64,000 nucleotides of DNA. Source: Pseudomonadota bacterium (GTDB lineage: Bacteria > Desulfobacterota > Desulfobacteria > Desulfobacterales > JBDRRP01). Where the stretch lies: NCBI GenBank assembly GCA_043825735.1, contig JBDRRP010000068.1, positions 1 to 64,000 on the forward strand, read 5' to 3'. Both the position numbers and the translations under genes were made by a program. The notes under the pieces were generated by a model. That model had not been told where the DNA came from. It saw nothing but the letters and a program-made list of their open reading frames with translations, and did not search any database. Of this stretch, positions 13,627 through 62,543 are shown piece after piece; the first letter of the stretch is position 1; each line of letters opens with the position of its first letter.

Positions 13627-14451
13627 ATGGTCTGGAAATGCACGGTCTGCGGTTATGTTCACAAAGAATCGGATCCACCGGCGAGCTGCCCGGTATGCGG
13701 CGCTGACCGCAGCCTTTTTATCGAAATCGACGGGAACAACTTGCCGGTGGGTGACCTCAAGGCCGACGCACCGGTTCTTTCGGAAAAGCCCGCCCCTGCG
13801 TCCGTCGCTGTCGACATTTCTGCCCGGCGCTGGAAATGCACCGTTTGCGGATACATACACACCGGTCCCGAACCGCCGGAAAAGTGTCCCGTCTGCGGGG
13901 CCGACCGCAGTAAGTTCGTTGAATTGACAGCCGAATCCCCTGAGCTCTCCTCGCCGGCCCCAACGGAGCAAGTGCAGTCACCGGAGGCTGACCCGGCACC
14001 CGCTCGACGCTATTACGACATGATCACCGATCTCATGGTCCGCCAGCACGCACATCCCATTTCAGTGCACATCCCAAACGGGGTGGCCCCTGTGGGCGTC
14101 GTGTTTCTTTTTCTGGCCGTGGTGTTTGGATCTCCCAGCCTGGAGCTGGCGGCAACCTTCAATATGGCAGTGGTTCTGCTTGCCATGCCCTTTGTTCTTT
14201 TCTCCGGTATCAACGACTGGAAAAAGCGCTTTGGCGGCAACATGACCAGCGTGTTTCTCACCAAAATGATCTGTGGCGGCATCATCAGCGGCCTGCTGCT
14301 TATTTTAGTGCTCTGGCGCGTCATCGATCCCGCCATTGCCAGCACACCTGGCCCGATGAGGACACTGTACCTGTTTCTCTACGTACTCGTCATTGCAGCT
14401 GCGGCACTGGCTGGATACATGGGCGGCAAACTGGTCTTTCCACAACGCTGA
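13627..14451 (+). CDS. Two rubredoxin-like domains fused to a 4-TM membrane domain (DUF2231-like)
   Basis: [14 protein letters not shown] occurs twice, followed by [12 protein letters not shown] and four hydrophobic helices ending GYMGGKLVF. Confidence 0.8.
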
Positions 14452-19898: not shown

Positions 19899-20025
19899 TG
19901 ATAAACCCGAAAAAAGTGATTTTGAACCATAGAGACCACAGCGAACCGAAGATAATATACTGAATAATAAGTAAGTTATCTCTGCGACGCTGTGGTGATT
20001 TCGAACTTTTTTACATGGCCATCAA
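19899..20025. repeat. Intergenic palindromic repeat / MITE-like element (family B, copy 1)
   Basis: Near-identical to 44708-44833 (AAAAAGTGATTTTGAACCA.AGAGACCACAG...AGTAAGTTATCTCTGCG...CTGTGGTGATTTC..ACTTTTT). Imperfect terminal inverted repeats. Confidence 0.8.
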
Positions 20026-25199: not shown

Positions 25200-25395
25200 T
25201 TAACTGATCACAACCCGTTCATTTCGTGTCTGTGGTTATCCATCACGAAGAAAACCCTTGCATTCTGATAAGGACTTCGTGATCGTTGATAAAAGCCGCG
25301 GCCCGCGGTTATCGGTGACAACACCGCTGGATGCCGTGCCGAAAATCGGTGAATATGGCCATGCATTCACTGCCCCGCACCAACTTTTACGGGAA

Positions 25396-26805
25396 ATGCG
25401 TCACATGCCAAAAATATGCGCTGTCACCAAGGAATTCCTTTTGTTGTTTTTTTTAATGTCTTTCTGTGCAGGCCCCGCGCCCGTTCTTGCCGACAAACAT
25501 AACCGAGAAACCCCCGTTGTCAAAGCGGTGCGGATGGTCGGCCCGGCGGTGGTGAACGTAAGCACGGAAACCGTGGACCGGCAAACCGGCCATCCTTATT
25601 CCAGCTTTGGCGGCGACCCGTTCTTTGAACATTTTTTCCGGGACTTTTTTGAATCCCTGCCGCAGCAGGAATTCCGGCGCACCAGTCTTGGGTCCGGTGT
25701 CATCATCGACGGCAAGAAGGGGTTTGTGCTCACAAACGCCCATGTGATCGGTCGGGCCACGACCATCACCGTCACACTTCAAGACGAACGCTCATATACC
25801 GCTGACATCGTCGGCGCCGATCCGGACTCCGATCTGGCGGTATTGCGCATTGCGGCAGACGCGCCGTTGCCGGCAATCGCCATGGGCTCGAGTGACGATC
25901 TGATGATCGGAGAAACGGTTATCGCCATTGGCAACCCTTTCGGCTTTTCACACACGGTCACCACCGGCGTCATCAGCGCGATCAACCGCAGTATCCGTGC
26001 CGAGGAGCAGGTATTTCGCGATTTCATCCAGATCGATGCCTCCATCAACCCGGGTAACAGCGGCGGTCCGTTGCTCAATATCGACGGTGCACTCATCGGT
26101 ATCAACACCGCCATTTACGCCAAGGCCCAGGGTATCGGATTTGCCATCCCCATCAACACCGCCCGACGCATCGTCAATGACCTCATTTTGTTCGGTGAAG
26201 TGGTCCAGCCCTGGTTGGGCCTGACCATTCAGGCGCTGGACTCAAAACTGGCGGACTATCTGGACGTTCCCGGCAGGCGGGGAGTGGTGGTCCATAAAGT
26301 CGTCACCGGCAGCCCCGCCGACAGCGCCAGGGTGAAAAGCGGAGACATCCTCTTGTCGATGGATCAGACCCCGGTCGGGAGCATCGACGACTACGACGGC
26401 GCCCTGTCACGAATCAGGACCGGCGATGCCGTTGCCCTGACACTCTGGCGGGACCGACGCCGGCTGACAACCTCCTTGAAAGCCGCCGTGTTTCCTGAAT
26501 CGCTCGCATTGCCGCTGGCGCAGGCATTGCTGGGAATCACCATTGCCGATATCGACGGCGACCTCCGCCAGCGCTACCGCATCTTGGCAGATGAAGGCGT
26601 GGTCATCACCGAAAGCCGCCCTCAAACGGATTTAGACCGCATCGGTATCCGGCCCGGGGATGTCATCCGTCAGGTGGATGACATGAATATCGCCGGCATC
26701 GATGATTTCAAGAAGGCTGTCGTCAAGTACCGGCGGAAAAAATCAGTGACGATGGTTATCCAGCGGGGGCGCCAGGGATATACCATCACGGTAAGGCTAA
26801 ACTAG
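25396..26805 (+). CDS. DegP/HtrA (Do family) periplasmic serine protease with two PDZ domains
   Basis: LGSGVII, TNAHV, DLAVL, GNPFG, INPGNSGGPL. Start approximate. Confidence 0.92.
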   Translation: MRHMPKICAVTKEFLLLFFLMSFCAGPAPVLADKHNRETPVVKAVRMVGPAVVNVSTETVDRQTGHPYSSFGGDPFFEHFFRDFFESLPQQEFRRTSLGSGVIIDGKKGFVLTNAHVIGRATTITVTLQDERSYTADIVGADPDSDLAVLRIAADAPLPAIAMGSSDDLMIGETVIAIGNPFGFSHTVTTGVISAINRSIRAEEQVFRDFIQIDASINPGNSGGPLLNIDGALIGINTAIYAKAQGIGFAIPINTARRIVNDLILFGEVVQPWLGLTIQALDSKLADYLDVPGRRGVVVHKVVTGSPADSARVKSGDILLSMDQTPVGSIDDYDGALSRIRTGDAVALTLWRDRRRLTTSLKAAVFPESLALPLAQALLGITIADIDGDLRQRYRILADEGVVITESRPQTDLDRIGIRPGDVIRQVDDMNIAGIDDFKKAVVKYRRKKSVTMVIQRGRQGYTITVRLN

Positions 26806-26948
26806 TGTCCATCCATAAACGGCATCTTTTGGCCCCTGGCGGCGTACTCACTCGTCTTCAATCCTCGAAATAGCAGGCTATTCCTCCGGTTGAAGACTCG
26901 TTCGAGCCTTGCCAGGAACCAAAATCTACCATTTCTGGACGGACACTA
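26803..26948 (+). mobile_element. ~146 bp rod-like palindromic element (family A, copy 1; MITE-like)
   Basis: Terminal inverted repeats TAGTGTCCATCCATAAA / TTTCTGGACGGACACTA. Internal stems CCTGGC/GCCAGG and GTCTTCAA/TTGAAGAC. Colinear with the reverse complement of 33038-33183. Confidence 0.75.
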
Positions 26949-26979
26949 AACGAATTAATTTCAAAGATCCGACAATAAG

Positions 26980-27017
26980 AAAAAAGGCCGCGGCGGGCTT
27001 TCCCCACCGCGGCCTTT
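26980..27017 (-). terminator. Rho-independent (possibly bidirectional) terminator
   Basis: AAAAAAGGCCGCGG...CCGCGGCCTTT between convergent genes. Confidence 0.8.
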
Positions 27018-27862: not shown

Positions 27863-28151
27863 CGTCTCCCTCCTGATTTGGTTATCGTTAGGCTTTTTTT
27901 GCCCTAATCGCGAATTGCGTTGTTGATGGCTTCTGTTGTCTGGTCAGATGGGAAGCCACACGCCGGTCAAGGCCTGTGGCCGTGCTATCCGTACATAACC
28001 GAAACACCTGAAATGAATCAAGAGATTTTATCTCGTCCAGGTATCTTTCATGGTTCTTATGCCGACTTGCCATCACTCATGGCCGGTGGTAATGGACTGC
28101 CTAAGACCGTGGTTTTGTCATAATAACAAGACGCCAAGGAGCTGCAGATTC

Positions 28152-30595: not shown

Positions 30596-33180
<2,585 letters not shown>

Positions 33181-33183
<3 letters not shown>

Positions 33184-34296
33184 AATCCGCATGGGCATGA
33201 TCACGCAAACATATCCTGAGTCGGCATCGCCACGGATCATACAGGGTTTTTCTTCGTCGATGATGTGCAAGGTGACGCTGTCGTCATCGATAACACTGAC
33301 TGCGTCGATGAAATATCGAGGATTGAAGGCCATCTCCAGGGTGTTGCCCTTGTAGGGAATGGCCATGTCTTCTTTGGATTCGCCGATGTCCGGATTGGTG
33401 GAACTAACCACGATCTTACCATCGGAAAACTTGAAGATAACACCTTTGTAATTTTCCGACCCCAGAATGGACATGCGCTTCAACATCATCTGGAATGGGT
33501 GTTTGTCCAGGGTGATATCCTGACCGCCTGTCATGGATACCAGGTCGTGATATTTTGGAAACTCTCCTTCGAGAAGACGTATAATAATGATTTCCTTGTC
33601 TTTTTTCACGACAAAGTGGTTTTCCTTGAAACCGGCTGCCACAGAGCCTTCATTATCAAGTAATTTGTTGACCTCCTGGAGCCCTTTTTTGGGAATGATG
33701 GCCCCGCCATCAAGGCCCAGGGAGATGGCGGATTCCATGACACAGTCCACCTTTGACAGGCGACTGCCGTCTGTGGACACCATGCGTACCGCAGTGCCGC
33801 TGTCCCCGTCCACCTGCTCGAAATAAACACCGATGATGTGTGCCCGCTTGTCATCGGTGGGTCCGATAACAAGGGATTTTTCAATCATGCGCTTGAGTTG
33901 CAGGCTGTCCAATGTGAAAAAAGGAACATCCTCCATTGTGGGAATCTCGGGAAAATCTTCGGGATTCATCCCGACGATATGGTACTCAACTCTTCCGTTG
34001 CCGATCTCAAGCCAGTGATTGTCGACTTCGTTGATGAGGATGTCATCACTTGGAAAATCTCTGACGATCTCGAAAAATTTTCTGGCATTGATGGCCGCCG
34101 ATCCCTCTTTTTCAACGGCCGCGCCGTAGTGCCCCTCGAAACCGGTCTCCAGATCGGTGACCTGAAACACCACACCGCCAGCCTGGGCTGTCATCAAAAC
34201 GCACGAGGTAATGGCCAGGTTGCTCTTTCTCCCGGTAATTCCCTGAATTTTCGACAACACGTCAAGTATGTCATTTTTATGAACGGTGATTTTCAT
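33181..34296 (-). CDS. dnaN: DNA polymerase III beta sliding clamp
   Basis: TDLETG, STDGSRLS, IIPKKGL, RLLEGEFPKY, AFNPRYF, C-terminal VIMPMRI. Confidence 0.96.
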
Positions 34297-34432
34297 AATA
34301 CCCACCTTTTTGCTGTCGTTAAAACCAGAAGGCACAGCCCCACCGATCACCCACTATCGCTCCTGTCCAAAGGCGTTTTTTTCTGATGCATATTATGCCA
34401 TATTTGTTTAAAATTTCAATACTTACTTATTT

Positions 34433-44008: not shown

Positions 44009-44611
44009 ATGCTTGACCCCATGAAAACAGGAATCCGGAAAAGCTGTTGCAGGTTCCTATTTCTGCTGCTGCTGGCCGGCGCCATGGCCGTGCCGATGCT
44101 TCACGCCGATATCTACATGTACATCGGCAGCGACGGTGTGCTGCATTTTTCCAATGTCCCCACCAGTTCCCAGTACCGTCTTTACATAAAGGAGCGACCT
44201 GCGCGCGATGCCACTGGCGACGCCCCGTCACGTTACGACCGCCTGATACGGGAAGCCGCCGCCGCTCACGGGGTGTCACCGGCCCTCATCAAGGCGGTGA
44301 TCAAGGCTGAGAGCAATTTCGACCCCTCGGCCGTGTCCGGCAAGGGCGCCAAGGGCCTGATGCAGATCATGCCGGAAAATTTCAACCAGCTCGACATTGC
44401 CGACCCCTTCGATCCCCGCCAGAACATCATGGGCGGGGTGCGCTACTTCAAACGCCTGCACCTGCGCTACGCCGGCAAACTGCCGCTGGTGCTGGCCGCC
44501 TACAACGCCGGTCCCACCGTTGTCGACCAGTACAACGACATCCCGCCCTACCCGGAAACCCAGGCTTATGTGGAAAAGGTGATGAAGTACTACTATGCCT
44601 ACGGCCGGTAG
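44009..44611 (+). CDS. Lytic transglycosylase (SLT domain) with N-terminal DUF4124-like region
   Basis: ES.FDPSAVSGKGAKGLMQIMP, AAYNAG, PPYPETQAYV; signal peptide. Confidence 0.9.
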   Translation: MLDPMKTGIRKSCCRFLFLLLLAGAMAVPMLHADIYMYIGSDGVLHFSNVPTSSQYRLYIKERPARDATGDAPSRYDRLIREAAAAHGVSPALIKAVIKAESNFDPSAVSGKGAKGLMQIMPENFNQLDIADPFDPRQNIMGGVRYFKRLHLRYAGKLPLVLAAYNAGPTVVDQYNDIPPYPETQAYVEKVMKYYYAYGR

Positions 44612-44678
44612 TGACCATCCACAGGCGGCGTTCTCACTCATGTGCAGTCCTCGACTTGCACAACAACTCCTGGTGAAC

Positions 44679-44833
44679 ATCGGGATCGCTATCGGGATCG
44701 GTATCGACCGTAAAAAGTGATTTTGAACCACAGAGACCACAGAGACCGCAGAGAATATACAGAATAATTAGTAAGTTATCTCTGCGCTCTCTGTGTCCTC
44801 TGTGGTGATTTCAGACTTTTTACGGGATAGTCA
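44679..44833. repeat. Family B palindromic element (copy 2) preceded by a 12-bp tandem repeat
   Basis: ATCGGGATCGCT-ATCGGGATCGGT-ATCGA (44679-707), then CGTAAAAAGT...CACAGAGACCACAGAG...CTCTGTGTCCTCTGTGGT...ACTTTTTACGGGATAGTCA. Matches 19899-20025. Confidence 0.8.
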
Positions 44834-48303: not shown

Positions 48304-48328
48304 TAGTGTCCATTTGTAAACGGACACT
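48304..48328. repeat. Collapsed remnant of the family A element (joined termini only)
   Basis: TAGTGTCCAT-TTGTAA-ACGGACACT matches the left and right termini of 26803-26948 without the interior. Confidence 0.55.
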
Positions 48329-62396: not shown

Positions 62397-62543
62397 GTGC
62401 CCGCCCATAAATGGCGATTCAGCCCCCGGCGTCGGTGGCCGCTCTTTTGCGCGCCGCCAGCGGCGGACTCGGACCTTTCGCCGTCACCAAGGCTATTGCC
62501 GGCAAGCGCCGGTAGCCAAAGCCTGCCATTTATGCACGGGCAC
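62397..62543. mobile_element. ~147 bp TIR-bounded element (family A, diverged copy 3)
   Basis: GTGCCCGCCCATAAATGGC / GCCATTTATGCACGGGCAC (17/19 complementary). Same length and similar ends as copies 1 and 2. Confidence 0.6.

Follow-up and report, generated by a model that had tools for sequence, protein, structure and literature searches.

The 64,000-nucleotide stretch of DNA analysed here (the window; its genome is G000) carries two copies of a short rod-shaped repeat, each abutting the 3' end of a protein-coding gene. Copy 1 follows a gene for a DegP-like trypsin/PDZ protein, and copy 2 occupies the gap between dnaN and gyrB (Table 1). A preliminary description of this DNA had aligned the two as 146-bp units, and both copies, with three covarying stem pairs and five conserved motifs, are found where it placed them. 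Its repeats are real, with one correction to their limits: the element proper runs from GTG to CAC, measures 142 bp in copy 1 and 144 bp in copy 2, and is flanked by a 6-bp (in some cases 7-bp) TANNTA duplication. The equal length of 146 bp arose because the flanks were counted differently in the two copies, the TA belonging to the target duplication.

The TAG at 26803-26805 is the stop codon of the DegP-like gene and that at 33183-33181 is the stop codon of dnaN, as noted before; the further proposal that the element donates these stops holds only for their last base. Both sites are empty in a genome of the same genus (G001), where dnaN has the same terminal codons and TAG, with gyrB immediately after it, and where the degP orthologue has the same last codon and no element. 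The dnaN-gyrB junction is likewise empty in five of five relatives. Because the empty sites in G001 end at the same codons, each stop lies at its native position, where the duplicated TA and the first G of the element restore it; since dnaN of the empty relative already ends in TAG, the element gives only the G of that codon.

Copy 1 precedes a separate terminator-like hairpin and does not replace it, and no sigma-70-like promoter was found in or beside this copy. A longer gyrB reading frame, from 33130, would read through copy 2. Three more relatives of the element, one of them full length and diverged, lie elsewhere in the window.

Table 1. Positions of the element copies, their parts, host genes and neighbouring features in the window
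Feature	Position	Strand	Remark
DegP-like trypsin/PDZ gene	25258..26805	+	host of copy 1
Copy 1, left target repeat TAAACTA	26798..26804	+	7 bp; last TA and the element's G form the degP stop
MITE copy 1, GTG..CAC	26805..26946	+	142 bp; better-folding strand is -
Copy 1, left end	26805..26822	+	15/15 identical to an ISNCY right end (L058); 17/18 to the left end of the ISRsp17-annotated IS (L050)
Copy 1, conserved folded core	26839..26912	-	common to rods with other ends
Copy 1, right end	26929..26946	-	16/16 starting bases match the terminus of the truncated ISNCY at G000:C69:44142
Copy 1, right target repeat TAAACGA	26947..26953	+	6/7 same as left repeat, one mismatch
Terminator-like hairpin	26983..27017		separate; 3' of copy 1
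gyrB	30596..33025	-	start ATG at 33025 from comparison with relatives
Copy 2, right target repeat GTTAA	33033..33037	-	likely eroded; followed by the gyrB ribosome-binding region
MITE copy 2	33038..33181	-	144 bp; dnaN/gyrB gap
dnaN (DNA polymerase III beta clamp)	33181..34350	-	host of copy 2
Copy 2, left target repeat GATTTA	33182..33187	-	identical to the dnaN end, as at the empty G001 site
Left-end fragment	44611..44671	+	internal deletion; directly 3' of a TAG
22-bp remnant	48306..48327	+	two ends only
Diverged full-length relative	62397..62543	+	34.7 bits on - strand

Family, footprint and candidate transposase

A profile search of G000 yields 130 loci, 60 of them full length; with an end scan added, the set comprises 81 copies that have both ends (92-333 bp) and about 100 single or truncated ends. 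Self-contained hairpins are inserted at five fixed positions of the longer copies, combined in mosaic fashion. The element is present in 15 of 31 genomes of an order sample (BLAST) and in 20 of 101 genomes of a phylum sample (covariance model R1), this genome being included in both counts. Proteins encoded next to the G000 copies include no recurrent mobile family, and no transposase-bearing pair of rod ends, that is, no autonomous element with both ends, was found within 6 kb in this genome.

When repeat lengths of 2-10 bp were tried in G000, only 6 exceeded shuffled pairing (5 of 49 perfect, compared with 0.4), and a 2-bp TA duplication is rejected on this ground. Relatives have perfect 6-bp repeats in 10 of 44 cases (1.06 when shuffled), all of the form TA..TA. 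A perfect 6-bp repeat is kept in just 6 of the 81 G000 copies, and the footprint is more eroded in copies whose nearest copy is more distant (rho -0.62).

A relaxed end scan recovered, at G000:C69:44142, the C-terminal 78 amino acids of an ISNCY transposase, ending in the rod's own end sequence. This locus (C69:44142-44589; L036) is an internally deleted ISNCY, in which a left-end-like motif is fused to the final 78 codons plus the right end, and its 78-residue fragment is all that was found in G000 of the NF033593 transposase group. Among intact ISs its nearest relative is L041, which is 1671 bp long, has TAACTA on both sides and encodes a 451-aa NF033593 protein; this protein scores 445 bits against a curated cut-off of 325, and a triad of D147, D355 and E406 can be read from its motifs. 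The partner group may be the ISDol1 subgroup of ISNCY, which has 6-7-bp repeats.

We assembled 13 such ISs: the 11 of 17 loci that have both ends and flanks, plus two from rhizobial plasmids annotated ISRtr6 and ISRsp17. Eight have perfect repeats (seven of 6 bp and one of 7 bp), four match at 5/6 and one at 4/6, all of the form TA..TA; the imperfect repeats may reflect assembly chimeras. Rod ends agree with IS right ends at a mean of 13.1 of 15 bases (13-15 in most cases), as against 11.2 and 10.2 for left ends, and both ends of copy 1 are nearer the IS right end than the left. The Desulfobacterales transposase is 44% identical to the ISRsp17-annotated enzyme, the titles of the partner-IS records are mostly Desulfobacterales or Desulfobacteraceae, and among 34 viral-contig loci the end motif adjoins an ISNCY gene in 2. 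One ISNCY (L058) is 2316 bp long, with its transposase match spread over 2 kb, and therefore contains an internal insertion of about 650 bp.

The repeat shares with these ISNCY elements its end sequence and the 6-7-bp TA..TA duplication. It differs in having no transposase gene, in that both of its ends resemble the IS right end, and in its length of 142-144 bp. It is short and multi-copy, with IS-like terminal inverted repeats, an IS-like target duplication and empty orthologous sites, and is a MITE (miniature inverted-repeat transposable element) of the ISNCY NF033593 group. Judged from its ends and footprint, the MITE was likely moved in trans by an ISNCY DDE transposase, a proposed mechanism that we regard as well supported. 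Movement in trans had been suspected before; the mobile RNA or HUH/ssDNA element then envisaged is at odds with ends and a 6-bp TANNTA duplication of the DDE insertion-sequence type.

Other candidate partners were rejected. Genes of G000 for Y1, integrase, RT, IS4-, IS1634- and IS1182-like proteins have other ends, and a retro-mobile RNA is disfavoured by the IS-type ends and footprint and by the lack of a family end near five RT loci. No HUH, RT or IS gene adjoins any of 159 core-bearing loci, where the only matches are to tyrosine recombinases, at two loci. REP/REPIN elements with a RAYT (Y1 HUH) enzyme were rejected on the same loci and because cognate repeats flank none of the eight Y1_Tnp genes in G000, one ordinary copy lying 3 kb from such a gene. 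Five genomes with many copies (G013, G023, G002, G003 and G018) gave no NF033593-group match, all being drafts in which ISs are often unassembled. G012 has an intact ISNCY, yet rod-type ends occur in only 1 of the 25 rods examined there (of 104 hits).

A second MITE family (family B, about 155 bp, with a CCCCTCCCC-type interior) is represented in G000 by 21 two-ended copies, for example C55:9262-9416 and C90:33971-34124. It has the ISNCY ends and 6-bp footprint of the rods, an unrelated interior and little stop-codon bias; two of its copies flank a two-gene block at C25:59434-63725. Minis of 22-77 bp consisting of ends only have the same ends and footprint. Such sharing would follow from an enzyme that reads the ends, and because family B moves without the core of the rod, that core would be unnecessary for movement. 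The core is also absent from intact ISNCY elements.

Back-to-back ends, 1, 2 or 6 bases apart, occur in G000 at C101:18096, C44:30960, C108:73705, C4:12485 and C145:65200, and a contig of sequencing run X3 contains a joint of 26948 to 26802, the end joined to the start across 6 bases. Back-to-back ends may record tandem insertion beside an old end or may be traces of circular intermediates. A loose search for them was drowned in chance matches, and no empty allele was seen in the sequencing-run contigs among the joints listed.

Covariation and strand asymmetry of the rod

The rod folds far beyond shuffles on the strand noted in the preliminary description (z -6.1/-5.1); the choice of strand has to be reversed, as the opposite strand folds better (z -11.9/-7.3). 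Its fold energy is -84.2 versus -57.0 kcal/mol for copy 1 and -69.8 versus -57.8 kcal/mol for copy 2. Folded as RNA, the minus strand reaches the lower energy in all 70 of 70 copies, and folded as DNA in 69 of 70. Its conserved core comprises a CAAGGC bulge, a CCGSAGG / TCGAGG internal loop, a terminal hairpin and AACGC. G-T cells outnumber A-C cells on this strand by 444 to 25, a tally that leans on a structure derived from the same strand, and pair types found in at least three copies number 17 G-T and 1 A-C.

The covariation is real. Across 31 disjoint closest pairs, 43 double changes from one Watson-Crick pair to another were counted, compared with 7.7 +/- 2.5 in 1000 shuffles, a count that excludes an outlying copy and four pairs with over 30 differences; 19 of the changes fall in the ends and 24 in the interior. 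In a separate, independent count of 19 sequences, 24 of 52 pairs covary against 8.6, and 4-8 when the partners are slid. This evidence, drawn from disjoint pairs and singletons, bears out the selection-like covariation along the entire rod, with fixed loops, that had been claimed from the two copies. The window has no Rfam match at gathering score, and none overlaps the element at E<=10.

Polarity at stop codons

That the element lies at gene 3' ends in a single orientation, likewise first proposed from two copies, holds across the family. With gene ends taken from our own gene calls, 41 of the 81 G000 copies have a gene end no more than 8 bases from their left end, and 3 of 81 have one that close to their right end; stops in relatives are at the left end in 27 and at the right end in 5 of 44. 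Among TANNTA sites of G000 that are non-genic or overlap a stop, 146 of 2338 (6%) are at stops, the denominator including insertion-intolerant sites, and 34 of the 81 left ends have the same two stop offsets as these 146. Family B, with the same ends, has stops at 4 of 27 and 1 of 29 ends.

Left-end stops are found in 38 of 65 G000 copies with an eroded footprint and in 3 of 16 with an intact one (p 0.005); the corresponding counts in relatives are 18 of 25 and 9 of 19. Because stops are commoner at eroded copies than at fresh ones, retention contributes to the bias, some of which arises early. The host mRNA in the favoured orientation carries the weaker-folding strand. Orientation showed no dependence on local GC skew (45 of 81, p 0.37), skew being a weak proxy here that genes follow in 2405 of 4413 cases.

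A core shared with other elements, and its possible role

In G000 the core occurs with at least three other end types (profile search), and in the phylum with many more; some of these other core families have 4-bp CTAG or 5-bp TGTAG repeats. One end type bounds both an IS5 transposase gene (NF033581) and a 144-bp rod scoring 65.8 bits with R1. Of at least 108 rods recovered from metagenomes, 94 are 110-200 bases long, and the minus strand folds better in 88 of these 94; 21 of 57 left ends and 3 of 55 right ends are at stops. G012 (L543-L566) has at least 104 core-bearing rods, and in most of the 25 that were examined the ends are of TAGAA/TAAAA type, copy-specific yet paired; their stop polarity is 14 versus 3 of 25. 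One viral contig holds two core copies without IS-type ends (L011:1953-2076 and L012:1953-2077), one of them 15 bases before a tyrosine-recombinase gene. The preliminary description recognised no named family. An IS end does match, and the match leaves the shared core unexplained. Neither the family nor this core is described in the open literature searched, most subscription papers and ISfinder lying outside that search; the portions seen of PMC11602168, PMC8147514 (including six supplements) and bioRxiv 10.1101/2022.12.17.520857 name neither the family nor its partner IS.

In E. coli K-12, R1, which represents this family alone, has no hit. Model R2, trained on 72 rods with mixed ends (48% mean identity, no E. 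coli sequence), gives six hits there from six scored candidates, at E 4.7e-6 to 0.029, values that are rough, with a short calibration and a training set partly picked by a pattern holding the conserved bases. Four hits are ERIC-type copies (26.6-40.2 bits, E 1e-5 to 0.03 per genome) and two belong to a second palindrome; E. coli was chosen after the resemblance had been noticed, and most ERIC copies are missed under strict filters. Control searches with R2 gave no hit in G029 or two rhizobial plasmids and one hit in G007.

The second palindrome (K-12 2543641-2543788, between cysP and ucpA, and 2746330-2746419), which is presumably RSA, includes the best E. coli hit (41.8 bits). It is about 148 bp long, and its inner AAACCGGAGCGTA..TACGTGAGGATTT is close to the inner core of the MITE; in contrast, its ends are different and its full copy has little strand asymmetry (-57.9 versus -56.6). 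The four ERIC-type copies are mutually related and all fold better on the model's strand. Over 40 bases the aceF-lpd copy, compared by eye, matches the published ERIC consensus in reverse complement, and a left-type end lies at a stop codon in two of the four, for example at ahpC.

As described in PMC3184786 and PMC2759123, enterobacterial ERIC (also IRU or RU-1) is 127 bp long, with TA termini and a TA duplication. It is, like the MITE, a rod over its whole length, and the published consensus has the same outer GCTGCGTT..GCCTTGC motif; it is shorter and differs in its termini and duplication, whereas the MITE has 142-144 bp, GTG..CAC termini and a 6-7-bp duplication. The inner loop is GA/GA in ERIC and GSA/GA in the Desulfobacterales MITE. 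To judge from these motifs the core resembles ERIC, by homology or convergence. Two other elements can be compared from their descriptions in PMC3184786. The mobile bcr1 of Bacillus cereus (about 155 bp) is similar in its size, direct repeats and fold-keeping compensatory changes, and differs in its 5-bp repeats and cruciform-like fold. Chunjie of Geobacter uraniireducens is also a deltaproteobacterial MITE with a stable fold, and differs in length (178-235 bp), ends (21 bp) and repeats (9 bp).

We consider it probable that the element is a non-coding ISNCY-type MITE, likely moved in trans, with a separate conserved core whose predicted fold forms on the strand antisense to the upstream gene. 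In our model, a transposase would bind two IS-right-end-like ends and cut the target with a 6-bp stagger, which on repair would leave the duplication. TA-rich targets would often be TAA or TAG stops, and since the duplicated TA and the first G of the element rebuild TAG, the host protein would be unchanged. We are highly confident of this first half of the model. Its second half is tentative: selection would act on the minus-strand fold, most likely as extruded ssDNA bringing the ends of the 142-bp piece together; this would account for a rod length that stays constant, for side hairpins confined to five fixed sites and for the G-T bias among shared variants. The orientation that places the weaker-folding strand in the mRNA would then be kept, and the reverse orientation at a stop lost. 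The core would likely decide which copies spread and persist.

Selection on an extruded strand leaves unexplained the covariation that arises in place. Of 69 private changes, 20 are double Watson-Crick swaps, some of which affect the very first base of an end, and the base just outside the element pairs above chance (63% versus 50%, p 0.001), so some compensation took place after insertion; the ends of G012 rods have drifted and are still paired. These observations would be expected if the MITE were a vehicle and its core a functional minus-strand RNA, or a protein-binding RNA or ssDNA site, selected copy by copy for the host, and the purine-rich loops and G-U pairs on one strand, the enrichment of older copies at stops, the same polarity with other ends and the viral-contig cores without IS-type ends agree with such a role. 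However, copies turn over even within the genus, the roughly 100 truncated ends indicate frequent decay, and private one-sided changes have no minus-strand preference (11 A-C versus 6 G-T); the Rfam result and the absence of a sigma-70-like promoter in or beside copy 1 also count against a host function, which we think rather unlikely.

An ordinary fold-back MITE, with covariation produced by templated copying or repair from arm to arm and stop bias by TA-rich targets and purging, is less likely again. It would account for the many private transversion doubles without intermediates, for copies in which one arm has been converted to the type of the other (copy 2 and C55:66581 among them) and for the derivation of both ends from one IS end. 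Plain arm-to-arm repair nevertheless fits poorly, because standing wobbles and loops are seldom erased: four private changes turn a G-T or mismatch into a Watson-Crick pair, against the 20 doubles. Nor would arm copying yield strand asymmetry, and target preference would have to raise the 6% of TANNTA sites at stops to 34 of 81 left ends while leaving family B at its low counts.

Slightly more improbable still is a core that is itself the mobile unit, read as a structure by, for example, a Y1 HUH/RAYT-type enzyme or a tyrosine recombinase, with the IS ends secondary: at least five end types with the core in G000 and many more elsewhere, several rods without a recognisable IS end, the rod length near 145, the eight Y1_Tnp matches and the two rods adjoining tyrosine-recombinase genes are set against a footprint that tracks the ends (6-bp TANNTA here, CTAG or TGTAG elsewhere), a coreless family B with the same footprint, Y1_Tnp genes that family ends never flank (0/8) and the lack of a recurrent mobile gene at the 159 loci.

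For the ISNCY-type MITE with its separate core, membership of the NF033593 group is the known part; out of the ordinary is a strand-specific, ERIC-like core common to several transposase families. It is possible, although we would not yet lean towards it, that ERIC/IRU, the second E. coli palindrome, Neisseriaceae-type IS5-ended rods and the Desulfobacterales MITEs form one ancient superfamily, a portable module on unrelated transposases whose ends have been swapped many times and whose strand-specific folded core directs, or is selected for, one-way placement at stop codons. The link to a named enzyme makes movement of the family directly testable with an ISRsp17-type transposase. Were the core homologous to ERIC, many "unrelated" bacterial MITEs would share one working part, the long-unexplained reason for the ERIC fold and its recogniser could be tested in E. 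coli, and natural variants at 48% mean identity would mark the bases that matter. Were it a mere by-product, this would be an ordinary MITE with a tidy stop-codon habit.

Other features of the window were observed in passing. Two adjoining long inverted repeats, with 38-bp and perfect 22-bp arms, lie at the end of a penicillin-binding-protein gene (138-262), and two tandem Cys-containing repeats (13632-13910), rubredoxin-like by eye, lie inside a single open reading frame. Another repeat family, of GTAAAAAG / CACAGAGA type, occurs at 19907-19986 and 44708-44786; it has about 40-50 similar ends genome-wide, which are like the ends of an IS1182-like element at C38:674-2564. The intergenic stretch at 27898-27960 has seven clustered differences from the contig of the best-matching sequencing run, reflecting either a strain difference or an assembly error.
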